Positions 1 to 30,109 of a stretch of 34,477 nucleotides of DNA are shown here, in pieces (position 1 is the first letter of the stretch; the number at the start of each line of letters is the position of its first letter). Location of the stretch: positions 1 through 34,477 of the forward strand of contig CAZFKY010000001.1 in NCBI GenBank assembly GCA_964519485.1, in the 5' to 3' direction. The stretch comes from an uncultured Candidatus Saccharibacteria bacterium. Its GTDB lineage: Bacteria; Patescibacteriota; Minisyncoccia; Phycocordibacterales; UBA9973. The translations under genes were made by a program, and so were the position numbers. The notes beneath the pieces were generated by a model. It saw only the letters and a program-made list of their open reading frames with translations, was not told where the DNA came from and made no database searches.

Positions 1-2050
1 TGTGTTCATTGCCACCATTGTACCAATCCACCGGCATCCAATATTTCAATTTTTTCTTATCTGCAAAAGCTTTATTATTTTTCACATCTGCGTAGCGTAA
101 GAAATACCAAGAAGAACCTGCCCAGTTTGGCATGGTGTCTGTCTCCCTTTTAGCCTTGCCCTTACATTTTGGGCATTTGGTATTTACCCATTTTGTAATA
201 TTTGCTAGTGGACTCTCGCCATTGTCAGTAGGCTGGTAATTTTTTACCTTTGGAAGCTCTAGCGGTAGGTCTTTTTCCGGAAGTGGCACAATACCGCAAT
301 ACTCGCAATGCACTACTGGTATAGGCTCACCCCAATATCTCTGACGAGAAAAAACCCAATCTCGAAGCTTGAAGGTGGTCTTCAATCTACCACCCACAAA
401 CTCGGTGATTTTCTTTTTCGCTTCTTCGGAAGTAAGATCATTGAACTTTCCAGAATTTACCAAAATACCGTATGGAGAATAAAATAAATCTGATCTACCA
501 ATTCTGTTGAATGGTGTAGGATTGGTGGTGATAAAAGAAACAACTTTTTCTCTCTTCACCCAAACAATATCATGTTTCTGTTTTTCTTCTTCCGTAATTT
601 CCTTTCTTTCTTCATTTTCTAATTCAAAATAAAGACCATAAAAGTCTGCGTTTCTGTTTTCATTTTTTTGAGGATGCCAAAACGAAGCCCTCATGGGGTT
701 ACCTAAGTATTGTATAAATTTTAAATTTTTATAACCTGTTTCTTCATAAATCTCCCTTTTTGCTGCTTCTATCATATCTTCACCTTCTTCAACACCCCCA
801 GTGATTGGACTCTTCCATTTAGCATCTTTTTTCCAATCCAACAATAAAAACTCATCTGTCTTTGGATTTCTAACATAACATTCTACACACTTTCTAAATA
901 CAAAAGGCAAACCCACTTTAGGAGGATGAAGTTTTTCTACTTCATGTTCTGCAACTACATACTTGATCTCAAGACCATGCTTCTTTGCAAATTCCCAGTC
1001 TCGTTCATCGTGCGCAGGTACAGCCATCACAGCCCCTGTACCATAATTTGCGAGCACATAATCCGCCACCCACACAGGTATTTCCGCACCATTCGCAGGA
1101 TTGATGGCTTTTATGCCTTTCAATTCTACTCCGGTCTTTTCTTTATCAGTAGCGAGGCGGACTGCTTCATCTTTCTTCTTTACTTCATTGATATATTTTT
1201 CTACCTCTCCCCAATTTGATATTTTATTCTTCAAATCTAACACCACTTTGTGTTCTGGGGCTAAAACCAAATAAGTAGCTCCAAAGATGGTGTCTGCACG
1301 AGTGGTGAAAATATCTACTACATCTAGTTTTAAACTATTGGCTACGAGCTGAAAGCTAATCTGAGAGCCCTCGGACTTTCCTATCCAATTCCTCTGAGAG
1401 AGCTTCACATGAGGTAAATAATCCACTGTGTCCAGATCTTCATAGAGCCTATCTGCATATTTGGTAATAGCGAGCATCCATTGCTCTTTTTCTCTTTTTT
1501 CTACTGGAGCCCCACAACGCTCGCAACAACCATTGATCACCTCTTCATTCGCAAGACCAGTCTTGTCATTTGGACACCAATTTATATTTATTTTAGCTTT
1601 ATAGGCCAAACCTTTCTTTAAGAATTGCAAAAAGATCCACTGGGTCCATTTGTAATATTTCGGATCAGTAGTATTTATTTCCCTCTTCCAATCAAAAGAA
1701 ATACCGATAGATTTTATTTGTTTACGAAAATTATCTGTATTCGTTTTGGTAACCACTCTAGGATCTTTGCCTGTCTTGATAGCATAGTTTTCTGTAGGTA
1801 AACCAAAAGCATCCCAACCTATAGGATAAAGCACATTATAGCCCTCCATCCTCTTCTTTCTGGAAATAAGATCCATACCTATATATGGCCTAGGATGCCC
1901 TACATGTAGACCATCACCAGATGGATATGGAAACTCTATCAAAGAATAAAACTTTTTAGCCTTACTCTTGTCTTTGGCATTATAGATACCTTTTTTATCC
2001 CAGTAATTCTGCCATTTCTTTTCGATTTTCTTGTGATCGTAGTCCTTCAT
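1..2050 (-). CDS. leuS: Leucyl-tRNA synthetase, first ~683 codons; the 3' end runs off the window at position 1. It is absent from the ORF track because no stop codon lies in the window.
   Basis: My own reverse-complement translation from ATG 2050-2048 stays open to position 1. It reads [34 protein letters not shown] (HIGH motif)..[28 protein letters not shown] (Zn knuckle)..[21 protein letters not shown] and [24 protein letters not shown] (CP1 editing domain)..[55 protein letters not shown]. Confidence 0.95.
470..955 (-). other. Nudix-hydrolase domain inserted inside LeuRS, between the end of the CP1 editing domain and the LVNSGKF segment
   Basis: [23 protein letters not shown] (nt 731-799) fits the Nudix box G-x5-E-x7-R-E-U-x-E-E-x-G-U at every fixed position. 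About 160 residues separate HGLEIKYV from [15 protein letters not shown]; as I recall, E. coli LeuRS has only a short linker there. Confidence 0.75.
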
Positions 2051-3432: not shown

Positions 3433-4026
3433 TTAATTCCTCCCTGGAAGAACCCATCCAAGAAATTGAAAGTTATTTTGATAATAATATCGATCATTAT
3501 TATTAATAAGATTTAATTTACTATGACTCTTACCCTTCACTAGTGAGTAGCCGTAAGATGATCCCCCACAACCACCAAAAATAAAGAAATCACATCCCCC
3601 ATGGTAAACAGAATCCCAGGATACACTGACACCATCCTGAGAGGTCAATAAGCCACTCAAATTAAGCGCCTGTGCTTCTTCTAGGCTAATCTCTCTACTT
3701 TCATTCTTTTCTGTATCATGTAGAAAAATTCTTGCTGTGTAATTTTCTTTAATATCTGGAATTTTATTATTATTTAAATCCTGTTCGGGATCTATCGCAC
3801 GAATCACCAACTTACCATTCTCTACAAAATATTTTTTCTGTAAAAAGTCATTGCAGTTATAGGGATAATAATTATTATTTTCTACACAAACAGTATAAAT
3901 AAAATTATATTTCGTTTTTAAAAAAATCGAAGGAAGGTATGTGGTAAGGACAACAATAATAATCAATAAAACTGGCAACAAAAAAGCCAATAAAACTGCA
4001 AAATTTCTTTTTATAAAGTCTTTCAT
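3433..4026 (-). CDS. Hypothetical protein with one N-terminal TM anchor. The ATG at 4026 is preferred; the track start at 4044 is a TTG.
   Basis: MKDFIKRNFAVLLAFLLPVLLIIIVVLTTYL forms a signal-anchor. I recognise no motif in the Cys/Gly-containing C-terminal part (HGGCDFFIFGGCGG). Confidence 0.6.
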   Translation of the reverse strand: MKDFIKRNFAVLLAFLLPVLLIIIVVLTTYLPSIFLKTKYNFIYTVCVENNNYYPYNCNDFLQKKYFVENGKLVIRAIDPEQDLNNNKIPDIKENYTARIFLHDTEKNESREISLEEAQALNLSGLLTSQDGVSVSWDSVYHGGCDFFIFGGCGGSSYGYSLVKGKSHSKLNLINNNDRYYYQNNFQFLGWVLPGRN

Positions 4027-4032
4027 TTCTTT

Positions 4033-4041
4033 ATTATACCA
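4033..4041 (-). promoter_or_regulatory. Extended -10 element TGgTATAAT, 6 nt upstream of ATG 4026
   Basis: Minus strand reads t-TGg-TATAAT-aaagaa-ATG, with no SD sequence. The geometry fits a leaderless transcript. Confidence 0.35.
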
Positions 4042-4045
4042 CAAA

Positions 4046-6781: not shown

Positions 6782-8236
6782 TTAGACTTCCTTAATTTCG
6801 TTACTAATGACTTCTTCTGCTGCTTCAATGTCTTTTTTAAATTGAGTGATAAAAGCACGCTCATCTGGGGCAAGAGGTTGCAAAGCTTTTATTTTCTTTA
6901 GAATTTTCATTTGTTCTTCTGCGTCTTCTTCCAAGATAGAAAAGCTCTTATTTACCATAGATTTTGCATGAGCCAATCTCTTGCGCATATCTTCTCTATA
7001 ATGAAGTACTTTATACCAACCCCAGGTAGAAATAAAGATGAGCATTATTATCACGGCTACCATCGGTATAAGTAGAGAGAAAGTATTTACTACATTATTC
7101 ACGATAGTATCAGATTTTAATACATTGACCTTGATAGATTCAGATTTAGAGCTCTCAGTGCCGCCTTTGGTCTTACTATAAGCAGTAATCTCATATACAC
7201 CGCTATTTGCTTTGTCAGAAACATAAGTAAATACACCCTTGTCATCAGCCTTAATTTTATAAGTATTGTTTAAAACATTATCTACCTCACCCAAAGAAGA
7301 TGTAGAATTATTAAGTACAGCAGACACATCCATATATACATCGATACTTGGATCAGCCAAACCTTTCACTACTATATATTCTTTTTCTTTTATATTTTCA
7401 GAGTATTCAGTAAAAGATGGTGTGATGAGCCCACTGATATTGAAAGAGTCCGTATTAGAAACCACATCGTTATTTATAGTATCCATAGATACCTTGAGGG
7501 TGTGGCTACCCTTAGGCAAAGCTGGTGCTTCGTATATACCTGAAGATTGACTCTCCCAAGGATATGACACATCATCAATACTAATCCTATAATTAGAATT
7601 TTTCTTTTTTCCTGTACTAGAGATCAAGAACTTGGTGACAGAATCTACACTATCCTTCTTTTTCAACTCTTCTATTTGAATACTAGGTGCTGGTTTATCT
7701 TTCTCTACCACTGGAGCTGGGGCTGTCACTGGAGGAGTCTCTTTTACTGGCGCAGTATTTATAGTAAAATTCGCCTGACCAGATTTAGATATTATATTTG
7801 TGCCCTGACCATCGTTTGCCAAGACAGAAGAGGAGTTAAATTTTATATTAGCAGAACCAGTAGATTTTGCCTTGAAGGACAAAGTGGCTACAGTACCACT
7901 AGATCCAGTATATCCAGACAAGATAACGCCTTCCATATCTATGGTGCCCAGAGAATTTGAATAAGTCGGCTCCTGTGCCCAAAGAGTAATAAGAGAACCA
8001 GACTTTGATACCGAATTTAAAGAAAGTATATCCTGAGAAAACTTTAGTGAGCCAGAGACAGCATTGGCTGATTCACCACCTGTAGATAGTAGTATTTTTA
8101 CGGTAATAGTATCTCCTACTTTATAGGTTCCAGATGAAGGAGATAAGTTTAAATCAGCTGCAAAAACATTTTGTGCAGAAAAAAATAATATAAATAAAAA
8201 TAAAATAGAGAAAAGTACTTTAGAAACTTTTATCAT
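6782..8236 (-). CDS. Surface protein: signal peptide, cohesin-like domain, Pro-rich linker, Ig-like domains, C-terminal TM anchor and an ~85-aa charged cytoplasmic tail
   Basis: Signal peptide is MIKVSKVLFSILFLFILFFSAQNVFA. The cohesin-like block (nt ~7817-8158) reads LNLSPSSGTYKVGDTITVKILLSTGGESANAVSGSLKFSQDILSLNSV..GTVATLSFKAKSTGSANIKF. The TM segment is FSLLIPMVAVIIMLIFISTWGW, followed by the tail REDMRKRLAHAKS..EEVISNEIKEV. Confidence 0.7.
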   Translation of the reverse strand: MIKVSKVLFSILFLFILFFSAQNVFAADLNLSPSSGTYKVGDTITVKILLSTGGESANAVSGSLKFSQDILSLNSVSKSGSLITLWAQEPTYSNSLGTIDMEGVILSGYTGSSGTVATLSFKAKSTGSANIKFNSSSVLANDGQGTNIISKSGQANFTINTAPVKETPPVTAPAPVVEKDKPAPSIQIEELKKKDSVDSVTKFLISSTGKKKNSNYRISIDDVSYPWESQSSGIYEAPALPKGSHTLKVSMDTINNDVVSNTDSFNISGLITPSFTEYSENIKEKEYIVVKGLADPSIDVYMDVSAVLNNSTSSLGEVDNVLNNTYKIKADDKGVFTYVSDKANSGVYEITAYSKTKGGTESSKSESIKVNVLKSDTIVNNVVNTFSLLIPMVAVIIMLIFISTWGWYKVLHYREDMRKRLAHAKSMVNKSFSILEEDAEEQMKILKKIKALQPLAPDERAFITQFKKDIEAAEEVISNEIKEV

Positions 8237-8242
8237 ACTTAA

Positions 8243-8248
8243 ATTATA
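8243..8248 (-). promoter_or_regulatory. Perfect TATAAT 6 nt upstream of ATG 8236; it overlaps the TAA stop of the upstream gene
   Basis: Minus strand reads agg-gTATAAt-ttaagt-ATG. It could be an internal leaderless-type promoter, or a coincidence created by the GTA TAA codons. Confidence 0.25.
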
Positions 8249-9077
8249 CCCTAACTCTCTTTAAATATCTATACAAAAAGTAAATAAATAGTGTTGATAA
8301 CAACAATAATAGATACATATAAGGCGAGACCACAGTAGAGGAAGAAAAATTACCATTTAGATCATACGCTTTCACTTTAAAATAATAAAATGGTGTCTGA
8401 TTTTTTAATAAATAAGGACTATCCGTATTTACACAAGAGAAAAATTCACAGACTTGATATTGGCCAATACCTGAACCTTTGTCATTGGTACTAAAAACAA
8501 TAAAATATTTGCCATCAAAAATGGCTGGATCTCTAGAACGCACCACAGAAAAACTCTCTGGTGCAATTTTGTCATCCAACACAAAATTAGGATCAGCCTT
8601 ACCATCTAAATTAGGGGTAATTTTAATAGAATCATTAAATACAGTATTTTTTACGACAGTACCCTTACCATCATTTAAAAAAGTACTTACATTATTTAAA
8701 GATAACTTTGCCAAACCTATAGCCTTTGCCCTAAACACCACTTGAAATACTTCCCCCTTATTAACTAAAACACCTCCGGGGGTTATGCCAGAAAAATGAA
8801 TCAATCCTGGTATTTTGTTTTCTGGTTTTTCTACCCAAAAACTGACAAAAGAAGATCCTGTATTTATGACCTCTATTTGGAGTAGACTTTTATCATAAGA
8901 TAAATCACCTTCTAGGGTGTTTATCTGCTCTCCTTCGGTATTTAAATAGACAGTGCTAGTAAAAGTTGTACTTTCAGGTTTAATCTTGCTGTCAGATTCC
9001 AAACTCAAACTAGCAGCAAAAGATTTATCTGCCACAAATAACAAAACTATAACAAATATAAATTTAAATTTTTTCAT
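8244..9077 (-). CDS. Surface protein: signal peptide, cohesin-like domain, Ig/FN3-like domain and C-terminal TM anchor
   Basis: Signal peptide is MKKFKFIFVIVLLFVADKSFA. The cohesin-like block (nt ~8673-9014) reads LSLESDSKIKPESTTFTSTVYLNTEGEQINTLEGDLSYDKSLLQIEVINTG..GEVFQVVFRAKAIGLAKLSLNN. The C-terminal anchor is YMYLLLLLSTLFIYFLYRYLKRVRV. Confidence 0.65.
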   Translation of the reverse strand: MKKFKFIFVIVLLFVADKSFAASLSLESDSKIKPESTTFTSTVYLNTEGEQINTLEGDLSYDKSLLQIEVINTGSSFVSFWVEKPENKIPGLIHFSGITPGGVLVNKGEVFQVVFRAKAIGLAKLSLNNVSTFLNDGKGTVVKNTVFNDSIKITPNLDGKADPNFVLDDKIAPESFSVVRSRDPAIFDGKYFIVFSTNDKGSGIGQYQVCEFFSCVNTDSPYLLKNQTPFYYFKVKAYDLNGNFSSSTVVSPYMYLLLLLSTLFIYFLYRYLKRVRV

Positions 9078-9078
9078 A

Positions 9079-10401
9079 TTATCCAGTCCAATAATAAGCC
9101 ATAATACTAAAGTCGATTAAATTAATCTTGCCATCGCCATTTAATTTACTAGCATCAAAAGAAGTTGAAGCATTATTTAAATTTTTCTTATACCAAAAAG
9201 CAGCAATAGAAAAGTCTACTAGGTTCACCCGACAATCTCCATTCAAATCTCCTTTAGCTGGACATTTCTTGGTCTTATCTACTTCAGTGTTTTTATTACC
9301 TACCGTAAAAGCCACTACCTTACTATAAGAACTAATTTGACCATCTTTAGCTGATTTTGATTTAGCATTGTGATCTCCTAGCTCAAGAGGTGAAGAATCT
9401 ACCACTTGGAGATACACACCCTGAGCATCTGCATTTACTTTTTTGAAGATTTCTTCTTCTGAGTGGATAGAAATAGTAATTTCACTAGAAGGTATAGATT
9501 GACCAAAGAAAGTTATATTATCTCCTTTTTTAACCTGACTTTTATCTACTCCAAGAGTCGGCGCTAAAAAGATGCCTCCGATATTTGTGGTTGAACCAGA
9601 AGTCAAAGATACTGGGAAAGTAAGGAGGGATGATCTATTACCTTGGTAGTCTTCGGAGTAAACAGAGAAAATATAATTACCAGCATTTAAATTATTTACA
9701 GTTATAGTGAAATTCGCATCACTACCAGCCACAGTAGAAGATAATATTTGTGCATCTTTGAGTAGAGTCACATTACTACTCGGATAAGCCCTTCCCGAAA
9801 ATACAGCGGATGCATCAGAAGAAACTATGAAAATTCCGCCGCCTCCGCCGCCTCCGCCTCCGCCGCCATTATTATTGTTATTACTAGAAGCTACTGGTGT
9901 AGCAGAGACTTCATCGGATTCACTTAAGAGTATCCCAGAAGCATAAGATCGGATCTTAAAATAATAATGCGTGCCATTCGTAAGACCAGTTTTAGTAGTA
10001 GTCAAAACATCTCCAACAGAAGTATAAACATGACCACTGCCTGAAGTTGTACTTACACCTAACTCATAACTAGTAATATTTGCCAGAACCCCCACAGAAG
10101 CTGTCCAAGAAATTATTGCTTGTGAATCACCGGCTGTAGCTGATACTACTGGTGATGTAGCTATTGGAAAATAAAGCAATCCTATATTATGAAGAAAACT
10201 AATACTAGAACTCTGCCCAATATCGAGCTCACCAGTACTGCTAATATATTGGAAACTAGAAGAACTGGACTGACCGCCACCGATAGTATTTATAGGATTT
10301 TCTACTTTAAAACTAGGACTAGATACATCTGCTCTAGCTGAAGAATAAAATAAAAAACTAAAAACTAAAATAATTAAAAGGTTTTTCTGAAAAACTTTCA
10401 T
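9079..10401 (-). CDS. Secreted FN3/Ig-domain protein with a C-terminal dockerin
   Basis: Signal peptide is MKVFQKNLLIILVFSFLFYSSARA. The FN3-like block (nt ~9892-10155) reads PVVSATAGDSQAIISWTAS..YELGVSTTSG..TGLTNGTHYYFKIRSYA. An N5G11 linker, two Ig-like segments and the dockerin follow. Confidence 0.85.
   Translation of the reverse strand: MKVFQKNLLIILVFSFLFYSSARADVSSPSFKVENPINTIGGGQSSSSSFQYISSTGELDIGQSSSISFLHNIGLLYFPIATSPVVSATAGDSQAIISWTASVGVLANITSYELGVSTTSGSGHVYTSVGDVLTTTKTGLTNGTHYYFKIRSYASGILLSESDEVSATPVASSNNNNNGGGGGGGGGGGIFIVSSDASAVFSGRAYPSSNVTLLKDAQILSSTVAGSDANFTITVNNLNAGNYIFSVYSEDYQGNRSSLLTFPVSLTSGSTTNIGGIFLAPTLGVDKSQVKKGDNITFFGQSIPSSEITISIHSEEEIFKKVNADAQGVYLQVVDSSPLELGDHNAKSKSAKDGQISSYSKVVAFTVGNKNTEVDKTKKCPAKGDLNGDCRVNLVDFSIAAFWYKKNLNNASTSFDASKLNGDGKINLIDFSIMAYYWTG
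9082..9270 (-). other. Dockerin module (two Ca-binding loop-helix segments)
   Basis: GDLNGDCRVNLVDFSIAAFWY and KLNGDGKINLIDFSIMAYYW form a duplicated D-x-N-x-D-x-x-(I/V)-N-x-x-D-F motif, as in type I dockerins. Confidence 0.85.
9835..9882 (-). repeat. Imperfect trinucleotide tract encoding N5-G11 (inter-domain linker)
   Basis: Plus strand reads tccgccgcctccgccgcctccgcctccgccgcc followed by attattattgttatt. Confidence 0.85.
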
Positions 10402-10491: not shown

Positions 10492-10911
10492 TTAAGGCTT
10501 CTTTGGAGTTGTGGTAGATGTACTACTTGGTGGAGTAACCCCTTTTTGATTACCAATATTTAAAGGTGCTACATCGATAATCTTGTTTAGGGTAACACTG
10601 TACAATACAGCCTTTTTGGCTTGAGCATATATAAGCACCTTGTCTCCTTTTTGAGCATTTGCAAAGAAAGATTGATCTTTTAAAGCTTCAGGGTCAGATA
10701 CGGTAGCTACTGTTGGACTCTCACCTACAGGCAAGATTGCCAACTTTGAAACCTTAGCTACTAAATCAGCTACCTCTTTTTGAGCTATAGCTTGAGGATT
10801 TTGCTTCAACACTCTCAATTGAGAGTAAAAATAACCAGCCAAAACCACAGCTATGATAGCTATAAATGGCACCTCAACACGCATTAAATTCTTTTGTGAC
10901 ATATTTTCCAT
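10492..10911 (-). CDS. Small membrane-anchored protein with an exported Ser/Thr/Pro-rich tail, function unknown
   Basis: The N-terminal anchor is VPFIAIIAVVLAGYFY. A soluble domain (..PTVATVSDPEALKDQSFFANAQKGDKVLIYAQAKKAVLY..) follows, and the protein ends in PPSSTSTTTPKKP. Confidence 0.6.
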   Translation of the reverse strand: MENMSQKNLMRVEVPFIAIIAVVLAGYFYSQLRVLKQNPQAIAQKEVADLVAKVSKLAILPVGESPTVATVSDPEALKDQSFFANAQKGDKVLIYAQAKKAVLYSVTLNKIIDVAPLNIGNQKGVTPPSSTSTTTPKKP

Positions 10912-11004: not shown

Positions 11005-14000
11005 TTAGGGTGCATCCCCGCCGCCACCTCCACCGCCACCTCCTTGAGAAGCTAGGCTGTCTGCATAGAAATCATCTCCACGGGTATCACTAGAATTACC
11101 CTTTCCTACCAATCCTGGTCTACCTGTAGAATACGTAGAATCAGTAGTCGTGGTTACGACCACACCATCTTGTTTTAGAGTAAGTGTGGTGCCTGTGATT
11201 TCAAGTCTGATTCTCTCACCGGGATTAAATGCTGTACCAGTGTACAATGTAGTAGGAGCACCGGAAGACCATTTTATAATTTTTACATTTGTACTATCAG
11301 AATAAGCACCATAGCCACTCTGTGCGCCAGACTGCAATCTAACTCCGACACCCATGTAATTTCCGGAAGATAAAGCCGGTAATACAAGCTCAGCAAATTG
11401 ATTATCATTAAATGCTCCCACGTTCCATCTTGCCATAGTATCTACTCCAGCAGCATTACTCATAACTGCATTACTATTTAAGGCAAAAGCTCCATTCAAA
11501 ACATTCCAGCTCGAATCATAACCCACCAAAGGCACACCATTAGACCCTGTAAAGGCTTGAGGCAATTCACCACCACCGCCACCAGAATTACCTTCTCCAC
11601 CGCCACCATTAAATCCTCCGTGGCCAAAACCTCCACCACCGACAGCTGTACCACCACCAGAATCTCCTCCACCACCTCCACCACCGACAGCTGTACCACC
11701 ACCAACAGCCACAAAGCCCCAACAAGAACCATTATTTACACCCACTTTAAATATATGATCTTTCGGACCAGAGTAATTTTGACTAGCGTTACATCCCACA
11801 TCAGACAAAACTACGAAATCTAATATTCCATTTGGAGTTGTAGAAAAAGTGATATACCAAATAGAGCCATTATCAGGAGAACCGATCCAAATAGGCTCTG
11901 TAGGGGTACCGTGGAAATTCATCTGATTTGCAATAATAAGATTCCCGGCGACCGCAAAATTTATTCTGTGTCCTGGTGTTTCATTATTTAAATTATAATA
12001 AGTAGCAGATTTTATTAACACCACATCTGGTATTGGATCTAAAACCACTGTGCCATTATTATGAGTAAATGTGCCTTGCACTGCAAAATTTCCTCGCAAT
12101 GTAAGGATACCTGTATTTGAAGCAATTACATTACCATGAGTATCAAAATCAGCATTTACAGTAAGATTTGGGTCATTGGTATTTAGATTTATATTTGGAT
12201 TACCAGCATTGGTTCCATCTAAGCGATGAACAATCATAGTGCCAGAAGAAGGCACAAAAGTTCCCGGACCTTTCATAGTCAAATCATAATAAGTAATATT
12301 ACCTGGAATATTTGTAGTATTACCGGAACCTGAATTAAAGATTATATTACTACCGGTAGTAGAAGCAGAGAGGGTTCCATTTAATGTAATTGGTGTACCA
12401 TTGTTCAAAGAAAATTCTAGCGTATGCGCACCCACTGAAAGAGTTTGATTAGCATCGATAATAGCGCTTGTTGCAACAACATCAGATAATATAGAAAGTG
12501 TTGTATTTCCTGTATTTGCAGAAATTTGAATAATACCCAAATCAGAATTATTACCATTTGTATTTAAAGTCTGAGTACCAGCCAAACCTTTTGCAAATAT
12601 TACCTTGTTGCTTGCACTTTTATTTACAGTAGGTCCAGAAGAAACTACAGTATTACCACGAACAGTAATATCAGAAGATGGTAATGTAAATGTGCCTGAA
12701 CCTGTAAGTGTGAGGTTATTATAAATACTAGCAACCACATTTTGAGTTGATCCAGAATAAACCACAGTACTATTGCCTGAAGCAAATGTACCGTTAATCA
12801 CGAGAGGTGTGGCCCCTGTAAGCTCTAAAACTCTATTATCTGAGCCCATGTTAAGGGTAGTATTTAAAGATACAGTAACAACACCAACAATAATATTTCC
12901 AGTACCACCAGTAGAGACAGCTACGGCCTGTGACCCAGATGAAGAAGACAAAGTCAAAGTATTAAAAGTCCAATTATTGTTTCCAGATGTTTGACCAAGG
13001 TTTTTAGTAGAAGCTACTTGCATAGTCACAGGGACATCGGTATTTACAGTTCCTGCGCCAGTCATATTTCCGTTTACTATCAAGCTTCCTCCGCCAGTAC
13101 TACCGTTCAAAGTACCATCTACCACAACATCACCAACCAAGGTAGTATTCGCACTACTTCCCAAAGACAGGGTGGCATTATTCGATATAGTGGTAGTGCC
13201 GTTTATAGTCACAGTAGGGTTGTTCACAGCAAAAGAAAATGCTGCTGGATTAGAGCCGTTACCCACTGTAAAATATCCGTTCACAATAGTAGTTCCCGAA
13301 AGGAATTTACTAGCAGAAGCACCTGCGCTTGGACTAATTTGCAAATTATTATAAGTAAGAGCAGGAAGATTTGTCCCACCTGGTCCAGTATAAATCACAG
13401 TAGAACTTCCCGCAGAAAGTGTAGACTTACTGTTAGCAAAAGACAAAGTGCTAGTGGTTAAGCTTGAAGAACCTAGTGATAATGTATCTGTGTTAGTAGA
13501 GCCAGCATTTCCTACAGTAAGAGTTCCAGACACAACATTGCTGCCCGACATATTATATGTAACCCCTGTCAATGCGTCAGAAGTACCTCCGAGTGTCAGA
13601 TTACCGTAAGTCGTAGTCTCTACATCAGTTGTTCCTGTTTGTCCTTCGTAATCAATTGTACTACTAGTGCCACTAAATATACCGTTGTTTATAAATGGTC
13701 TTGATGATCCAGTTCCAGTGCCTGTAATTGTTGTTGTGTAAAAAGATGGGGCAAAAGTCTGAGACGCATCTACGAGCAAAGTCGTCACTTTGGTATCACC
13801 ACTCAAAGCCAAAGTCGTAGCTCCAGAATTTGCTGATATTTGTATATTACCTAAATCACTACTACCACCATTTAGGTTCTGAGTACCTCCACCACCTTTA
13901 GCAAATATTATTTTATTGCTTGCACTCTTGGTGACTGTAGCACTAGCATTCACAACCAGATTACCTCTGATAGTAATATCTGAAGCTGGTAATGTGTATG

Positions 14001-17000
14001 TACTACTGCCACCTAGTGTAAGATTATTGTAAGTAGTAGCAGTGACATTTTGCAATGTTCCAGTATAAGCTACAGTTCCTGTATTTGGCACAAAGCTACC
14101 AGTTATTACAAAAGGACTAGAAAATGCTGTAGATGTGAAATAAAGATTTCTATTACCTGAACCTAGATCAAGGGTAGTGCCTGCACCTACTGTCAAAGAG
14201 TATCCAACATATATATTAGAGGTACCAGCAGAATTTAAAGTGACAGTCGAAGAAGGACTAGAATTTATATTCAAAACCTGGAATTTCCAATCACCAGCAG
14301 GAATAGATCCTGAACCTCCAAAATTCTTATTACTAGCCACATCAATATTCACAATACAAGTAGTACCAAAACAAGTTGAAAAATCAATAACGCCCGAACC
14401 AGTAAGATTGCCCGATACGTTTATGGTGCCTGTACCTGATCCAGATTTATTTATAGTTCCATTAACAATAAGATCATTTGTAGTAATTGATGATACTCCA
14501 GAAGCAACTCCATACACAGCCCCAGCTGCGATGGTGGTAGACCCTGTGACATTTATCACCGGATTGTTTGTTGTTATCACACCTGCATGAGAGCCATCAC
14601 CTATAACCAAGTTATTCGCAACATTTGTAGTGCCAGAAGCTATGGTAATACCAGTCGAAGACGACGAAAGGAACTCTAAATTATAATAACTAGCTGCTGC
14701 TGAAGTAACAACACCGAGAACACTTCCAGTATATCTTACAGTCGATGTTCCATAAACAATTGTGCCTTTGTTTGAACCCGATAAAGACAGAGGTGTCCCT
14801 ATACCAGATGAAAGTGTCAACGTAGTGGAACCTAAATCTAAAATATCTGCATTAAAAGATGAATTATTACCCACAGCTAGAATACCTGCAACAATAACAT
14901 TGCCATTCATAGTATAGGTAACACCGGAAGCAAGGTCCATAGTCGTACCCAAAGACAAAGTATTGTAACCAACATTTGTGGTCTCTATATCTGTAGCTGA
15001 TGTGCCTTCATAATCCATATTAATGTTAGTTATCGTAGTACCATTGTTTATAAATGGCCTAAGAGCACCTGACCCAGAACCAGTCACAGTAAAAGTAGAG
15101 GCCACAGTAGATAGTGTTTGACTAGCATCGACTAAAATTGTCGTGACCTTTGTATTACCAGTCAGAGCCAGAGTCGTAGCTCCAGAATTTGCTGATATTT
15201 GAATATCACCTAAATCACTACTACCGCCATTTAGGTTCTGAGTACCTCCACCACCTTTTGCAAATATTATTTTATTACTTGCACTCTTAGTGACTGTACC
15301 CCCGTTTGAAATCCAGTTGCCTCTTATGGTTATATCAGATGCTGGTAAGGTATAAGTCCCAGCTCCACCTAGGGTAATATTATTGTATGTAGTAGGGGCA
15401 ACATTGGAAGTAGCTCCTGTATACTGCACTGTTCCTGTGTTTGGTATAAATGTACCAGATATTACAAGAGGAGTACCTGTACCAGACAATATAATAGTCT
15501 TGGATCCTGAATCTAAGCTAGTACTACTAGAAATAGTCATTACACCAGACACAGTGATAGACCCTGAGCCAGATTGAATAGTAGAAGTAGTAGAAGAACC
15601 CGTAAATGTAAGACTGCCAAAAGTCCAATTATTGGTGCCACTAGTCGTACCGAAATTTTTATTTATTCCAGCAAAATTATGAGTGAAAGTATTTCCAGAA
15701 ATATTTATAGTGCCTGTACCTGCGACATTACCAGTCGCAGAAATATTCCCCGCACCAGAGCCAGACATAGTGCCATTTACAGTAAGATCAGCCAGTGACA
15801 CTGCTCCACCTCCAGTAGTAAATGTAGCATTGGCTGCGATAGTGGTAGCTCCAGTGACATTTATTATTGGGTTATTAGTAGCAGCTGTTGCTCCATTGTT
15901 TGTGCCATTCCCCACGGTGAGTGTGCCACCGATATTGTAAGTACCAGCACCCATTATATTTTGAGTGGCACCAGCAGGACTCAATTCTAAATTGTTGTAT
16001 GAAGCCGCCGTACTAGTAGCACCATTACCTGTATATTTCACAGTGGAAGTACCAGGAGAGAGTAGACCCTTACTACTACCTGCAAATACTAGAGGCGTAC
16101 CTGTGCCTGATAAAGTCAAAGTGGTAGAACTTAAAACAAAAGTATCTGCATTTGTAGAAGAAGCATTGCCCACAGTAAGAACATTTTGTACTGTGATATT
16201 ACCTGAAGCAGTAAATGTCCCGCCTGCCACTGTATCAGATATTGAACCGATGTTTAAATTATAATAAGTAGCACTAGCTACAGAATTTCCAGTAGAAAAA
16301 CCTTCAAAGCCAAAAGTAGAAGCATTAGGAGTAAATACACCGCGTGAGGCATTTACCACCAAAGATCCGTTAGTTGAACCACCTGTCGAAGCTTGACCAG
16401 TAACCCAAGTCCTAGAACCAGCATCGAGAGTCGTGCTAGCAGAATCAGCACCTAAACCAACATTAACACTAAAAAATCCATATATACCACCAGAACCCCC
16501 AGAAGAAGCTGTAATAGTGACAGGTGAACCAGAAGAATTTGAAAACTTCAATGTAGCAAAATCCCAATTATTAGACCCAGATGTAGTACCAAAATTTTTA
16601 CTACTTGCTACTCTTTGCTCAAAAGTTGCATTAAATAAATTTATTCTACCCACACCTACTACATTTCCATTTGCAAAAACATTGTGAACTGCTCCACCAG
16701 ACAAAGTACCGTCGACTGTTAAATCACCGACAAAGTTAAACACACCATCACCATCTGTAAAGATAGCGTTCGCAGCAATTGTGGTAGTACCATTGACTGT
16801 AAAGGCTGGGTCATTAAGAACAGCACTGACTCCTGCATTTGTTCCATCTCCAACAGTAAGTGCCCCTCCTATAGTATAAGTACCAGCACTCAAGATCTGC
16901 TGAGAAGAACTAGAAGGTTTAAATCCTACATTGTTGAAAGTTGTACCGGCTGGTTGCGCAGGAATAGTAACTCCGTTACCAGTAAAATCAAGAGTGGAAG

Positions 17001-20000
17001 TTGCTCCAGTAAATACACCTTGAGGTGAAGATAGTATTACGAGTGGTGTCGAAGCAGAAGAAAGCGTCCATGTCTTTCCTCCTGCGTTTAATGTAGTCAC
17101 AGCACCTACAGCATCCCCTGCCTTACCCACGAGCAAACTTCCAGTTACTGTTATGCCACCTGTACCAGATTGAGTTGTTATAGTAAAAGGAGAAGATGCA
17201 TGAGAATTTGAAAAAGTTAAATTATTAAAAGTCCAATTGTTGGTGCCACTAGTTGTGCCAAAGTTTTTTGCAGCTGATACTCTTTGTTCAAAAGTATTCC
17301 CTGAAATATTTATAGTGCCTGTACCTACAACTGCGCCATTTACTGTAATACTTCCTGCGCCAGAACCAGACAATGTACCATTTACTGTAAGATCTCCTGG
17401 TATAGTTAACGTATTAGCGCTAGTGGTCAAAGTACCAGCTGTAATGGTAACACCGCCGACAGTAGTAAGACCAGAAGAAAATGTCCATCCCCCTCCGCTA
17501 CCATTAAATACTAAAGTGTCGAAATTACTAGATCCGTCTTCAATGGTAAAACCTGTTCCTGTCGCGGTGAATGTTGTTGTTTGTCCACCACCATAAGTAA
17601 ATGTTCCGCCATTGGTGAAATCTCCTCCCACAGAGAGAGCATTTGTACCCATTGCAAGAGTTGCACCAGATTGGATCAACACATCACCATCTGGGTTGCC
17701 AGAAGTTGATGCTGCGGTTGTTGTCACTGTTCCTCCTGGAGTAAATGTATTACCTGTCCAGACTAGGAGCTTGTTGCCAGAAGCCACAGTCAAATTTCCA
17801 GCACTTTCAGTAAACTTAATATTTGCATTATTCGCACTGTCATAAGCCCCCATATTTGTATTAGTTGTAGCCACTCCATTTTCATTACGCACTATTACTC
17901 TTTGGGCATATAAATCTATTGTGACTGGGTTGGTTCCATCGGCTACTTTTGTCACCGCGGATGCTTGTTGAGATGGGGTTGCGCTATCTACAAAAATAGT
18001 AAACACATCCCCTGCCACAGCACTACCCACAGCCGGCAAAGTATATGCACCAGTTCCTGATACTGATGAAGCCGATTGGGCAAGCACTCCGTTCTTAGCC
18101 ACACGCACAGTGAGAGATACTCCTGTAAGAGGTGTAACCCCTTCATTAGTATATATAGTTCCAGAAACCACAACCCCCACGACTGGGAATGACCAACAAG
18201 TAGAATCATTTATAGTAGCAGTAGGATCATCCACAGAAGTAGAATCCAAGCTAACTACAGCAGAGGAAGAACATCCAGAGTGTTGTAGATTTACATATGT
18301 AACTGTATTTTGAGTATTCAAAAAATCTGCAAGCCATACAGCCGTGGATGTAGATGTAATTGTTATCAAGTTTCCAGATGTACCAGTAACTACAAAAGAA
18401 TTTGCCGGACCATTGAAATTAAAGGTGGTACCAGCAGTAAACCTCACTGTCTTGGCAGCACCAATACCAGAGACATCAAACCCATAAAATGTAGTCGCTC
18501 CAGCGATAGTCGCCGTAGATGTAGTATTAAACTTTACTGTACCATTATTGTGAGCAAAGCCAGTAGTAGTAGCAGGAGTATTAGTAAAATTGCCACCTAT
18601 CGTGAGAGTGCCAGAAGTAGAGGTAAATGCTCCTCCAGTATTCACAAGGAGGTTGCCAGTCAAATTGATAGCAGAGTTTCCTCCAGCAAAAATTCCAGAT
18701 GCCCCAGCACCTATAGTCAAATTTACTGCTCCCAAGGTAAATCCTGTGCCTTGAGTTAGAGTGGTGCCGTTGCCTACGGTAATATTACCTGTTACAGCGA
18801 GACTAGCACCTGTGGTCCAAGATACTGTGCCTGAAGTTGCTAAATCCCCTGTCACTGTAGTCACCGCGCAAGTCACAGTGCCACTACCAGTAAAATTTAA
18901 ATCATCATATGTGGTGACCTTACAATTTGGGGCTGCAGCGGTATAATTCACCACATTACCTGTGGCTGTGGCATCTAGAGTTGTGATGCTAGGAGCCGAA
19001 GCAAAGCCGATATTCAAAACTCCTGTAGCACCGTTGGTTAAAGTAGCTCCAGCCAAACCACCACTTACAGTGAGGGTGCTGTTGTTTGCAACTGCGGTTG
19101 TCGCAGTGAGAGTACCTGCTACTGTAGTGGTGCCACCTATAGTAGCAGTACCAGAACCATTCACAGTAAGATTATTATAAGTAGTAAGAGCAGTAATAGC
19201 TGGCGATGAACCTGTATAAGCTATGGTATTGCCTGTATTTGTCAGTGTGCCTGAAACAACAAGAGGGGTGCCAGACCCAGCGAGAGTAATAGTACCGGTA
19301 GTAGCAGCAGTTAATGTTCCTGTTACTGTCAGATTTTCAGTATTTATATTTTCAGAACCGGACAAGACTAAGGTATCACCAGATTCTATTTGTAATGTCT
19401 CCCCTGTATATGAATTTGCGCCACCGGCACACCCAGTACCTTGCACATTTAAAGTACTTGAACTGACAGAATACATTACGTCTTCATCATCTGTACAATC
19501 ATAACCAATGCTTGTAGGATCAAGATTTGTTAGAGTCATGGATTGGTCATCGACAGAACCTATAGATAAGACATTGGTATTTAGTACTATTCCAGTCATA
19601 TTTCCAGTACCATCATATTTAGCTATTGCCGTAGATTCAGCAGCATCAGCCACAGCATCTATCCATGCCACGAGGACTTGGCCAGAAGATATAGCAACAT
19701 TACTAGCACTCCAAGTGCCTCCACCAATTACAGCACTCTGACCTGAGAGCACTCCATTGATTGCAAACTTTACTGTTCCTGTAGTATTTGAAGTTCCTGA
19801 CACTGTAGTACCGCAACCACCGACTGTCCAAGTGGTGTCCCCTGATTTAGTAGAAGTGTAAATAGTGACAGAACCAGTCATATCATCCACATCTACGTTA
19901 TAGATATTAAATGTTCCCGTACCTGACCACGCTCTGGTAGTGTTGTTTACACTTGATCTAATCAAAATACTATCTGCTCCATCCACGCATTGTGTCCCAT

Positions 20001-23000
20001 TATTTGAGTTAATAGTTATGATACCAGAGTTGGTGACAGTACTAGCTAGAGTTATCTGCCCTGTTCCTATATTTTGCCATACACCAGCTGAAGCCACAGT
20101 GATAGTACTGTTTGCAACCAAAGTGCTTGCTTGATCAAAAGTTCCATTATTAACATTGAGAGCAGCTCCCAAGGTCACTGCTCCAGTTATAGACAAAGTT
20201 CCAATACCATTTTTTGTAAGTCCAGACGCTGAGCCCACAGTACCCGCCAAGGTTACAGTGTATCCATTAGTATCGATAACACCGACAGAAGTAAGGGTGA
20301 CTGCTCTAGTGGATGGTGAAGAAATATTCCCTCCTGCTTGGAGTGTACCTCCGTTAAATATAAGAGTGTTGGTAACACTTCCATTACCAATAGCAGTAGT
20401 ACTGTTGGCTCTCAATGTACCTAGAGTTATTGTAGTTGTACCTGTATAAGTATTACTACCAGAAAGGGTCACTGTACCTGCAGTAGTTTTCGTCATACCT
20501 ATAGCACCAGCCAATATTGCACTTACTGTTCCACTTGAAAATGCATATGAGGTACCGGTCAACACTCCCGAACTACTTGTAATTCCACCATTGGTGAGTG
20601 TCACAGTACCTACTGTGTCAGTAAAAGTTGCGAGGTTGGCAAAGCCACCGATTACAGTAAGGTTACCAGAAGACAGAGCATCGTTGATCCCCCACGCCAA
20701 AGTTCCCGCATTGATAGTGGTCAAACCTGTAAAAGTATTTGCAGCAGAAAGTGTCACCGTGCCTCCGGTGTTTTTATTTAAGGCAATAGCACCACCGGCT
20801 AGCACTGCACTGATTGTTCCATTTTCTACAGTATATGCTGCTGATGATGCTATAGTTGCCGCACCACCAGTGTTCACTATAGAACCATCGATCAAAGTCA
20901 CCGCACCAATAAGAGTGGTGCCTCCTTCAGAGAAGCCACCAAGGTCCCATGTACCACCAGCCACAGTCACCGCTGGTGTAGCAAGAGCATCTGCAATGCC
21001 GTATTTAAGTGTTCCTCCATTTATACGCACAAGACCTGTGGTTACACTTACCGCACTAATTGTAAGAGTACCTGAACCATATTTAGTTATTGTTGCTGTT
21101 GTTGCTGAAGCACCGTAGACACCTGATATCGTCACCGGACCTGAGCCATCAATTGCTAAATTTCTTAAGTTTGCAGCAGTAATAGTTCCACCAAAAGTAA
21201 GTATACCAGCACCATTATTTGTAATTCTGGTATTAGAGCTTACTGTCATGGCACCAAAATTACTGTTCCCTGTTGCTGAGCTCGTAAGAGCACCACCATT
21301 ACCTATGCCTGTACCACTTAGGTTTAGGGTTTCGTAAGTAGAAGCCCCACCCAAAGAAAAAGTACTAAGATCTAATACCGCACCATCAGACACAGTGACA
21401 CCTCCTGCATTTGTACCGAGAGGAGTGTTTGTTGCTCCACCACTAGCACCCAATTGAAGTTTACCTGTGCTTACTGTCATAGCACCTGTCATTGTGTTTT
21501 GACCTCCCAATATAAGAGTACCTGAACCCTCTTTCACTAAAGTACCTGTACCCGACCATACACTATTTGTGGCTTGAGTAAAATTACCTACAGCAACTAC
21601 TGTAAGCGCAAAATTACCTGAAATTGCACCAGATACAGTCCAAACTCCTGTGCCATGATTGGCGACACGAGAAGCCGCACCCATAACAATATTTCCAGTA
21701 TAAGATATAGTATTATTAGAGCTATTTATAAATGCTCCGGTACTTGCGATACCAGTACCATTTATAGTAGCAGTCTCTGCAGTGCCCAGGGTAAAACCAT
21801 TCAAATCAAAAATTGCACCGCTTGTAACTGACACACCACCAGCACTTGTTCCGAGTGGTGTGTTAGAGGCACCACCAGCTGCACCTAGTTTCAAAGTACC
21901 AGCACTCACTGTGACAGCTCCTGTAAAAGTACTCGTAGCTCCTGATATAGTCCAGACACCAAGACCATTTTTTGTAAGTGTGCCTGTTGTTGTATTTAAA
22001 TTACTTGAAAGTGTTCCATTTCCCGCTCCACCAATAGTTAAAGCAAAAGTATTTCCTGTAATATTTCCAGTATTAGTAATATTTATATCTCCGTAGTTAG
22101 AAATAATTGTACTTGCTGCACCTAATGTAATTAATCCACTGTAAGAAACAGCTGCACTAGACTGATTTTGTAATGCTCCGGCACCCAAAGCACCACTCAA
22201 GGTCAGAGCTTCGGATGTTCCTAATGTGTAACCATTTAAATCCAAAGCCGAATTTGCTCCGGAAATTGTAGTCCCCGCTCCTGTTGTTCCGAGTGGAGTA
22301 TTTGTTACCCCACCACTAGCCCCGAGGCGGAGTGTTCCTGCGCTCACAGTCGTTAGGCCAGTATAACTATTATCCCCAGCAAAAACCAACACTCCTGTTC
22401 CTGTGCTCTTTGTTGGAGCAAAAGCACCACTAATGACAGCAGTAATTACAGCATCATTATCCATAAGTCCATCTGCAATATCAAATGTTCTAGCTGCACC
22501 TAGTCCTAGGTTACCTGTAACTAAAGAAGTTTTATTTGCATCTGCAATAGTTGTGAAGGTGCCTCCCAGAGTAAGTGTGCCTGCACCAGTAGTCACAGTA
22601 CCCACACGAAGAGAGAGGGCACCTATGGTATCAGAGTTACCATTTAGATTTGCAGTTCCATCTACAATAGTCAAACCTCCACTCGAGAGAGCATTACTAA
22701 CACCCCAAGTAAGAGTGATGTCGTTTACATAAGTTATACCTGTATAAAGATTGGCCGCACTGAGCGTAATAGTATTTCCAGATCCACTTAATGTTAAAAG
22801 CCCTGTTGTGGCTGTGCCGATAACTGCAGAGATTGTGGCGTTAGCTGTTGCTAAGACATCGAGTTCAAAAGTAGTAATACCGATAGTGGTATTTGCTCCG
22901 GCTATGCTTGTGGCTGAGTTCATTAATATGTTTCCTGAAAGTGAAGCTGAGGCCATAGTGATAGTAGCAGCAGCATTAGTAATACCAAATCCGTTTAATG

Positions 23001-29086: not shown

Positions 29087-30109
29087 CTATTTCAGGCTAT
29101 CAGAAAATTCATTTACTGCATCGTAAATTTTCTTTGAAATTTTCTGAATTTGCAATTTTTCAGAGTTTAAATTTCCACCTTTAGTCATAATACAAAGTAT
29201 ATAAGGTGTCTTTGTATGATACACAATTCCACAATCATGGAGCTCTATCTTAAGACTTTTGTCTCCTTGAAATAATTCTCGTTCTCCATACTTATGACTA
29301 ACCACAACATCATTTGGCACTCCACCAACAATACCATCTTTAAACACAGCTTTTGATAATATTTGCAGAGCCTCTTCTGAGTTTTCAGGACTCAGATAAG
29401 AAGCGTTATATAGAACCAATAAAAATCGAGCTATGTCTCTAGTGGTAACAAAATCTTTCTCAGCAATTTCTCCATCAGTTGATGGTAATGGGATTTTCAT
29501 GTCATCGAAAATAGACCGAAGAGAATCCTTTCTGTATTTATAAAGTAATTGAAGTGCATTATTATCAGAATTGATAATCATTTCAATCATCAATTCTTTG
29601 ACTGTATAAGTTCTACCAGGGGTAATAGTGCCGTTGCCTAGATTTTGAACAGTATTGAAGTCTTTTCCTTGGTATATAATCTTTTGCTCAAATAAATCTT
29701 TTTCTGTCTCGTGGAGTTTATAATATGAGATAAGCATTGGTAGCTTTAATAAACTTGCAGGAATAAAGGTATCTGAAGCATTAACACTAAACCAGCCTGA
29801 ATTCTTCAAATTTAAAAAAAATACTCCTGTTTTTATATCACTCCTTTCTGCCATCACATCTTGCACGAGAATTTTTAACTTTCTTTCTGCGGGAAACCAC
29901 TTTAAGGTCTCCTCTTCGTTACCATAACCAGAATTTAATATTGGTTTAATAAATTTATATTTACCATTATCTAAACGGCTGTCTGCATTGATTGGACTAT
30001 TTTTATAGATATCAGTAAAAAACCCTGCGTAAGAAAACAAAAACACAATAACTCCCCCAAAAACAAAGCCTATTACTAATAATTTATATTTATTAATTAA
30101 ATCTTTCAT
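29087..30109 (-). CDS. Membrane-anchored class-A beta-lactamase-fold serine hydrolase (PBP/DD-peptidase-like)
   Basis: The N-terminal TM is LLVIGFVFGGVIVFLFSYAGFF. S-x-x-K is present in PASLLKLP (nt 29745-29756) and S-D-N in INSDNNA. HKYGE sits at the KTG position. Confidence 0.75.
   Translation of the reverse strand: MKDLINKYKLLVIGFVFGGVIVFLFSYAGFFTDIYKNSPINADSRLDNGKYKFIKPILNSGYGNEEETLKWFPAERKLKILVQDVMAERSDIKTGVFFLNLKNSGWFSVNASDTFIPASLLKLPMLISYYKLHETEKDLFEQKIIYQGKDFNTVQNLGNGTITPGRTYTVKELMIEMIINSDNNALQLLYKYRKDSLRSIFDDMKIPLPSTDGEIAEKDFVTTRDIARFLLVLYNASYLSPENSEEALQILSKAVFKDGIVGGVPNDVVVSHKYGERELFQGDKSLKIELHDCGIVYHTKTPYILCIMTKGGNLNSEKLQIQKISKKIYDAVNEFSDSLK

Follow-up and report, generated by a model that had tools for sequence, protein, structure and literature searches.

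Can an aminoacyl-tRNA synthetase carry a second, unrelated enzyme within its own editing domain, and if so, what would that enzyme be doing there? This question is raised by the first gene of a 34,477-nucleotide stretch of DNA from an uncultured bacterium (contig CAZFKY010000001.1; the whole stretch that was analysed is called the window below), a leuS gene coding for a leucyl-tRNA synthetase (LeuRS) whose CP1 editing domain is interrupted by a Nudix hydrolase domain. Few enzymes known are as conserved as the aminoacyl-tRNA synthetases, and to our knowledge added catalytic domains on bacterial members of this class are rare; among the solved LeuRS structures returned by our searches, none has a second enzyme inside the editing domain. 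Our results indicate that the window gene very probably belongs to a bacterium of the Patescibacteria, or candidate phyla radiation (CPR), close to Nomurabacteria, and that it encodes a bifunctional LeuRS with a Nudix domain of about 150 residues in a surface loop of CP1. A LeuRS with an internal second enzyme is a real and conserved feature, and an ordinary one within CPR bacteria.

The leuS frame is read from the minus strand, opens with an ATG at position 2050 ([14 protein letters not shown]) and continues for 683 codons without a stop (Table 1). The gene is missing from the mechanical list of open reading frames (ORFs) because its frame runs off the window start, as a first-pass annotation made from the sequence had already explained. 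The visible portion therefore comprises the 5' 683 codons, and the C-terminal part of the protein, to which the KMSKS motif and the anticodon-binding domain belong, falls outside the window, past its start. In two full-length relatives (L004 and L006, see below) both KMSKS and PF08264 are present. A search for the 3' part of the window gene through its neighbours did not recover it: the DUF2157 protein was not on record, and following the YchF protein gave nothing beyond a 3-kb contig that lacks leuS.

In an NCBIfam profile search the 683-residue protein scored 719.3 bits against TIGR00396 (leuS_bact), for which the cutoff is 548.4 bits, despite being both truncated and interrupted. The protein is 40% identical to the LeuRS of Thermus thermophilus (2v0c), and the Pfam scan found in it only tRNA-synt_1, tRNA-synt_1g, the editing domain tRNA-synt_1_2 (PF13603) and NUDIX. 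Judged by these sequence features, namely the TIGR00396 score above cutoff, the HIGH motif, and a CP1 domain with its T-rich and AHD-x-RD motifs, the window protein is a LeuRS of the bacterial type. With HIGH and the editing motifs preserved, the host can be presumed to function as a LeuRS.

The exact position of the insert was derived from a two-block alignment to the T. thermophilus enzyme, in which residues 1-369 of the window protein correspond to Thermus residues 1-364, and residues 524-683 to Thermus residues 377-541. The 154 residues in between (370-523) replace a 12-residue loop of CP1 (Thermus 365-376), a net gain of about 142 residues. The PF13603 match (residues 220-372, E=2e-60) covers model positions 1-146 of 185, and because it is broken at position 146, the insert must lie inside CP1 and not behind it. 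The first-pass annotation had placed an in-frame Nudix insertion inside the editing domain at 470-955; this interval indeed encloses the insert (exactly 482-943), and the accompanying estimate of some 160 extra residues was correct in position and somewhat too high in size.

The inserted segment matches the Pfam NUDIX profile (PF00293) with E=3.2e-14 in the context of the whole protein and E=3e-15 when searched alone (53.5-56.9 bits, as compared to a gathering threshold of 21.1). Its Nudix box, [23 protein letters not shown], agrees with the consensus GX5EX7REUXEEXGU at all fixed positions, just as had been claimed, and the predicted catalytic glutamates are E433, E436 and E437. Two aromatic residues, F457 and W458, follow the box at distances of 17 and 18 residues, a placement that comes from sequence and not from structure; together with K462, N465 and R466 they are family-conserved candidates for substrate binding. 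An AlphaFold2 model of residues 355-540, built from an alignment of 80 sequences, reached a mean predicted local distance difference test score (pLDDT) of 91.5 and a predicted template modelling score (pTM) of 0.85, with the order of strands and helices of a Nudix domain. When this model was compared to the PDB with Foldseek, 562 matches at E<=0.001 were found, and the best 50 of these 562 were all Nudix-family proteins, with probability 1.00 and a target-normalized TM-score (TMt) of up to 0.77. These neighbours include an uncharacterised MutT/Nudix protein of Enterococcus faecalis, the ADP-ribose pyrophosphatase of T. thermophilus, NudI, NudB and the RppH of Escherichia coli, as well as human, Plasmodium and Aquifex hydrolases of diadenosine tetraphosphate (Ap4A).

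Modelling of the entire 683-residue fragment gave a pLDDT of 89.9 and a pTM of 0.79, with block pLDDT values of 94-98 over residues 361-510 and of 79-87 in the C-terminal linker (residues 511-530). The LeuRS part of this model fits the Thermus, Neisseria and E. coli enzymes with a query-normalized TM-score (TMq) of 0.6-0.69, roughly the value to be expected for a query of which 23% is an extra domain. By profile, motif and predicted fold, the insert is thus a complete Nudix domain that is predicted to fold on its own. Two of the checks that the first-pass annotation had proposed for its reading of the insert, a search with PF00293 and a prediction of an independent fold, came out in its favour.

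The same architecture was found far beyond the window. A scan of GTDB species genomes retrieved a 1168-residue LeuRS with a Nudix insert in a metagenome-assembled genome (MAG) of Candidatus Nomurabacteria (L004), a 925-residue carrier in a second Nomurabacteria MAG (L006), and a carrier truncated by its contig in a MAG labelled Saccharibacteria (L005). In a profile search over 1.84 billion cluster representatives, whose queries included the LeuRS flanks and were hence biased to LeuRS hosts, 208 representatives matched at E<=1e-30, and in most of the best 150 of these 208 the flank, the Nudix domain and the second flank were matched as a single contiguous stretch. The architecture is accordingly present in at least ~150 clusters at 50% identity. 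The source names of the carriers include Parcubacteria GW2011_GWB1_43_66, ACD_7C "uncultured bacterium", Candidatus Liptonbacteria, Saccharibacteria, Peribacteria, Paceibacterota and "Patescibacteria group", so that, on the evidence of sequence matches, the architecture is widespread over the CPR/Patescibacteria, including a lineage in which UGA encodes glycine. Since ACD_7C and GW2011 look by their names like early metagenome projects, the architecture has probably been public for years.

The proteins are stored under generic or misleading names, such as "class I tRNA ligase family protein", "NUDIX domain-containing protein", "leucyl-tRNA synthetase", "8-oxo-dGTP pyrophosphatase MutT" and "RdgB/HAM1 family...", and no curated NCBIfam model for a LeuRS with Nudix turned up in the profile search, in contrast to IleRS, for which an ileS_w_GNAT model exists. 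A literature search that combined LeuRS or aminoacyl-tRNA synthetases with Nudix, CPR, Patescibacteria, Parcubacteria or the editing domain returned no description of the architecture, and a review of the Nudix clan (PMC5389931) contains neither the word "tRNA" nor the word "synthetase". As far as we could find, then, the window leuS belongs to a large family whose members are in the databases but apparently have no description in the literature searched. The earlier statement that no description was known thus holds for that literature; as to rarity, the possibility that the insert would prove common and already annotated, raised at the same time, is borne out for its abundance, while the database labels are generic only. 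The closest relative of the window insert (66% identity) is found in P0028 (L009:1758-3776), whose upstream CP1 loop also holds a DUF559/Vsr-like endonuclease domain. In this gene a TAA at ~3774-3776 stands in place of the invariant Ser codon of LINSGKF, with the LeuRS frame going on beyond it; given a contig coverage of 5x, this may be either a sequencing error or a genuine nonsense mutation.

Could the arrangement be an artefact, whether a mis-assembly of leuS with a separate Nudix gene, a pseudogene, or an intein-like insertion that is removed after translation? Two observations could be taken to point in this direction. The GC content at third codon positions (GC3) is lower in the insert (0.235) than in the rest of the window leuS (0.37-0.40), and several relatives of the protein are present in databases as short fragments; our first search retrieved only proteins of 153-243 residues with a partial editing domain and a Nudix domain, which resembled a split LeuRS. 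However, both junctions of the insert are in-frame and leuS contains no stops, and the same insert occurs at the same site in intact long LeuRS ORFs of independent MAGs. Because the architecture recurs in many independent assemblies and lineages, mis-assembly and pseudogenization are excluded for the family, and with them an alternative that the first-pass annotation had itself named as refuting its reading. No intein/Hint splicing blocks and no homing-endonuclease domain were found in the Pfam scan of the 683-residue protein. The lower GC3 recurs in L006 (0.20 in the insert, 0.34-0.35 in the host gene) and in L005 (0.27 as compared to 0.35-0.40), though not in L004, and is therefore a property of the family and not of the window assembly; for the same reason it does not support a recent horizontal acquisition.

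The short database entries proved to be pieces of this architecture, and are explained by recoding of UGA, by a frameshift-ridden contig and by contig ends. At L001:4894-7836 one continuous frame contains six in-frame TGA codons, one of them at the conserved Gly of LVNSG, and reading UGA as glycine (code 25) yields an intact 979-residue LeuRS with the Nudix insert. On the frameshift-ridden contig, L002, other genes are broken as well. P0197, which had looked free-standing, is likewise a fragment of a broken leuS. The artefact explanation is already refuted for the family as a whole, and we regard it as almost certainly wrong altogether. More generally, lineages that read UGA as glycine are fragmented or mistranslated by standard gene callers, and P0006 and P0143 have a W where a conserved G is expected.

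The conservation of the module was examined in an alignment of 229 usable copies from LeuRS relatives (232 domain copies for the column conservation). The three glutamates of REUXEE, equivalent to E433, E436 and E437, are present in 228, 225 and 229 of the 229 copies, respectively, and this includes second and third copies within one protein. The first glycine of the box is found in 224 copies and the final one in 220, with W at these positions in 3 and 6 further copies, as expected for genes in which UGA encodes glycine and is read as Trp. A strict Nudix box is present in 187/229 copies, and most of the exceptions form a sub-lineage with E7 changed to Q and R15 to A, M or T, in which the metal-binding glutamates are intact; E7 and R15 of the box are normally a salt-bridge pair. 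Outside the box, the module has its own set of conserved residues: R386, W406, W412, F/Y at 457, Y/F at 458, K462 (196/219), N465 (172/215), R466 (163/215), E489, H493 and W497. In Nudix enzymes the X-loop contacts the substrate's X moiety, and in hydrolases of dinucleoside polyphosphates (ApnA) a stacking Tyr is found there (PMC5389931).

Most copies (187) occupy the site seen in the window, after AHD-x-RD (site 2), and another 20, in about 14 proteins, are found in a second CP1 loop, which immediately precedes the T-rich motif (site 1). Two proteins (P0016 and P0017) contain two tandem copies at site 1 in addition to one at site 2, and P0019 has two tandem copies at site 2; P0020 and P0022 are likewise multi-copy, each LeuRS having two or three copies of the same clade. 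Site-1 copies share 50-65% identity with the site-2 copies found in other proteins, from which it follows that the module has undergone duplication or transfer between CP1 loops. From these alignments, the Nudix clade is one that resides mostly inside CPR LeuRS proteins, usually at site 2, in one to three copies per protein. Free-standing members also exist: P0004, a protein of 164 residues that is 50% identical to the insert, is encoded on a 188-kb contig of Candidatus Parcubacteria (GCA_019661865.1) with no LeuRS nearby, and a second homologue is a 223-residue ORF in L007.

Other domains have entered the same LeuRS family. In a sample of 37 Nudix-bearing LeuRS proteins of at least 1000 residues, we found a Ser_hydrolase/alpha-beta-hydrolase domain in 11, a HAD domain in 3, a DUF559 (Vsr-like endonuclease) domain in 2 and a complete Ham1/ITPase domain in 1; the extra domains are located at site 1, behind the Nudix domain, or farther downstream. 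All 37 keep the motifs of the editing site and of catalysis invariant or almost so, and they thus still look like working LeuRS enzymes. Among individual cases, the Nomurabacteria LeuRS at L004:2279-5785 has a Ser_hydrolase-like alpha/beta-hydrolase (residues 259-409) at the upstream CP1 loop in addition to its Nudix domain, and such a domain is also seen in P0047, P0065 and P0099. P0023 has a HAD domain at residues 654-808. In P0076 and its cluster of 1330-residue proteins (P0261 and others), a Ham1/ITPase domain (residues 984-1167) is situated between the catalytic and the anticodon-binding domains; this cluster has six members, including a Candidatus Paceibacterota record, and is the one that bears the NCBI name "RdgB/HAM1 family...".

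When compared to known systems, the window protein shares with canonical bacterial LeuRS (T. thermophilus 1H3N/2V0C/2BTE, E. coli 4AQ7/4ARC and Neisseria gonorrhoeae 6Q89) the class I core, HIGH, the ZN-1 region and the CP1 motifs, and differs from them in having the 154-residue Nudix module where they have the 12-residue loop. No combination of LeuRS and Nudix was present among the PDB matches listed for either the LeuRS fragment or the insert. With free-standing Nudix hydrolases (RppH, 4S2X/7SP3; aq_158, 3I7U; NUDT2, 3U53; ADP-ribose pyrophosphatase, 1V8L) the insert has in common the Nudix fold, the full box and, judged by sequence position, a putative X-loop aromatic; however, it is only 15-22% identical to them, reaches no subfamily cutoff, is embedded in another enzyme, and has its own conserved R386, W406, W412, K462, N465, R466, H493 and W497. 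The free-standing CPR members of the clade (P0004 and the L007 ORF) are much closer, with an identity of 50-57% in the Nudix domain that takes in the N-terminal strand and the KNLK motif behind the box; they are, however, genes of their own, and the surrounding several kb contain no LeuRS sequence. Proteins of this type are likely to represent the donor, or an escaped form, of the module.

Among other synthetases and HIGH-motif nucleotidyltransferases with an added catalytic domain, the architecture can be likened to IleRS with GNAT (NF040702, ileS_w_GNAT) and to NadM-Nudix (NADM_SYNY3), an NMN adenylyltransferase fused to an ADP-ribose pyrophosphatase, in both of which an adenylate-forming enzyme is likewise combined with a domain that modifies or hydrolyses small molecules. 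Unlike in these proteins, the Nudix domain of the window LeuRS is an internal insertion in the editing domain, and its copy number varies within the family. NADM_SYNY3 is mentioned in the review of the Nudix clan (PMC5389931).

What, then, might the module do? On balance we favour the explanation that it is an active Nudix pyrophosphohydrolase embedded in LeuRS as a separate catalytic site; this preference blends high confidence in what the feature is with a confidence a little short of even in how it works. Under the latter, tentative part, the embedded domain, whose box residues are those of a metal-dependent pyrophosphohydrolase, would form a separate metal-dependent site that takes no part in aminoacylation or editing chemistry. 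Its substrate would be a small nucleotide-diphosphate-X compound, most plausibly an adenine-containing one, either a dinucleoside polyphosphate or a "house-cleaning" substrate of the type nucleoside diphosphate linked to X (NDP-X). The fusion would mainly ensure that, in a streamlined genome, the module is expressed together with an essential translation enzyme and located where that enzyme is, and the CP1 loops would be permissive docking sites that have repeatedly taken in small hydrolase domains. We lean to a separate site because unrelated hydrolases occur in the same host, because copy number and site vary, because free-standing homologues exist, and because LeuRS is a poor Ap4A producer. 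Several observations weigh against this explanation. All NCBIfam Nudix equivalogs are far under cutoff, the best being RppH (NF001938) with 31.7 bits as compared to 116, and the structural neighbours are a mixture of ADP-ribose, RppH, NudI, Ap4A and NudB enzymes; a substrate class was sought through NCBIfam, a PDB sequence search and Foldseek, and no consistent subfamily emerged. About 18% of the copies (42/229) depart from the strict box, which may alter activity. Finally, the clade is found almost only in CP1, rather than at termini or within other hosts, and it was re-inserted at a second CP1 loop, so that nearness to the editing site or to the tRNA acceptor end could matter, although the near-exclusive association with CP1 and LeuRS is partly a search bias, the profile queries having carried LeuRS flanks.

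This last point leads to explanations in which the module is functionally coupled to its host. It could hydrolyse Ap4A, Ap3A or other adenylyl by-products that LeuRS forms when tRNA is scarce, and so link aminoacylation to alarmones, a proposal that goes back to the first-pass annotation, for which the evidence is mixed and which we consider unlikely overall. The solved sequences nearest to the insert are Ap4A hydrolases (3u53, E=6e-4; 3i7u, E=3e-3), RppH and Ap4A hydrolases are among its structural neighbours, the conserved aromatic pair 17-18 residues past the box may coincide with the X-loop position of the stacking Tyr of ApnA hydrolases (PMC5389931), and the clade is, within the bias just mentioned, almost confined to LeuRS and always in CP1. 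The likeness to Ap4A hydrolases is nevertheless weak and not specific, with E-values around 1e-3 in the PDB and a score far under the cutoff of the Ap4A hydrolase/RppH (NudH) subfamily. In PMC10148737, which cites Goerlich 1982, LeuRS is placed in the "low" group for Ap4A synthesis, the Lys, Phe and His enzymes being high. Nor can by-product clearance account for the fact that the same host has HAD, serine-hydrolase and Ham1 domains, and the presence of one to three copies at two insertion sites speaks against a precise geometric coupling. An RppH-like module might instead act on tRNALeu or another RNA at its 5' end (a triphosphate, NAD or Np4A cap) while CP1 holds the acceptor stem. CP1 is indeed known to contact the tRNA acceptor end, editing complexes (2bte, 4arc) were among the structure matches, the best NCBIfam Nudix matches are RNA pyrophosphohydrolase models (NF001938, E=9e-8, and NF001936), and E. 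coli RppH is represented among the best structural matches; yet the RppH score is the one noted above as far under its equivalog cutoff, mature tRNAs normally carry a 5' monophosphate, and no RNA-binding extension is evident in the insert, all of which makes an RNA substrate improbable. Broader still would be a reading of the Nudix domain as a third, functionally coupled active site of LeuRS, mounted on CP1, which destroys Ap4A/Ap3A by-products or alarmones or acts on the bound tRNA acceptor or 5' end, the serine-hydrolase, HAD and Ham1 inserts of its relatives belonging to the same "editing platform"; this seems to us rather doubtful. A loss of catalysis, with the domain serving as a ligand sensor or as a structural appendage that regulates LeuRS, would fit the tendency of non-catalytic Nudix domains to occur in multidomain proteins (PMC5389931) and the sub-lineage with E7 changed to Q and R15 to A/M, but the REUXEE glutamates are kept in 225-229 of the 229 copies, the window included, which is expected for metal-dependent catalysis and not for mere binding, and we therefore judge this very improbable.

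One LeuRS lineage spread over the CPR/Patescibacteria maintains one to three Nudix domains in CP1 loops with catalytic residues intact, and esterase-like, HAD and Ham1 domains are present in relatives as well. Coupling of the module to LeuRS chemistry, if real, would mean that organisms of minimal metabolism have a new type of nucleotide control tied to a synthetase, and a coupled third active site would add to an aminoacyl-tRNA synthetase a layer of quality control or signalling not known before. If, as we favour, the separate site is a passenger, it would suggest that streamlined genomes pack house-cleaning enzymes into essential genes, with CP1 loops as natural insertion-tolerant sites. In either case, a curated model of the architecture would improve the inconsistent annotation that pipelines now give to these proteins.

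Table 1. Positions in the window of leuS, its LeuRS motifs and the inserted Nudix domain.
Feature	Residues	Window positions	Strand	Basis
leuS, bacterial-type leucyl-tRNA synthetase, 5' 683 codons		1..2050	-	open frame; TIGR00396
HIGH motif HVGH, class I catalytic core	49-52	1895..1906	-	read in translation
CP1 editing domain, N-terminal part	220-369	944..1393	-	PF13603
T-rich motif TTRADT	249-254	1289-1306	-	translation
GTG motif in CP1		1028-1045	-	translation
AHDERD (AHD-x-RD motif with conserved Asp)	346-351	998-1015	-	translation
Inserted Nudix domain and linkers	370-523	482..943	-	two-block alignment to 2v0c; AlphaFold2; Foldseek
Pfam NUDIX (PF00293)	386-503	542..895	-	E=3.2e-14, whole protein
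Nudix box [23 protein letters not shown]	418-440	731..799	-	translation
X-loop region (candidate): F457/W458 and K462-x-x-N465-R466		653..685	-	conservation in domain copies
CP1 C-terminal remainder (GILVNSGKF...) and return strand into the catalytic core		371..481	-	alignment to Thermus 377 onward
GILVNSGKF		443-469	-	translation
[17 protein letters not shown]		317-367	-	translation

The remainder of the window, outside leuS, contains several further genes on the minus strand. Four ORFs, at 31090-34431, 6782-8236, 3433-4044 and 10492-10911 (1113, 484, 203 and 139 residues, respectively), matched nothing in Pfam at E<=0.001. At 29087-30109 and 30119-31075 there are two genes in tandem that belong to the Beta-lactamase2 family, the second being weakly similar to D-Ala-D-Ala carboxypeptidases. 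A giant ORF of 5727 codons (11005-28188) was scanned over a stretch of 4997 residues (11005-25998), in which nine PATR (autotransporter passenger-associated) repeats were found, and its product is probably a huge surface protein. Next to it, a cohesin-domain protein (8244-9077) is adjoined by a Big_6/fn3 protein with a terminal type I dockerin (9079-10401), and by their domain content the two look like a cohesin-dockerin pair beside the giant surface protein.

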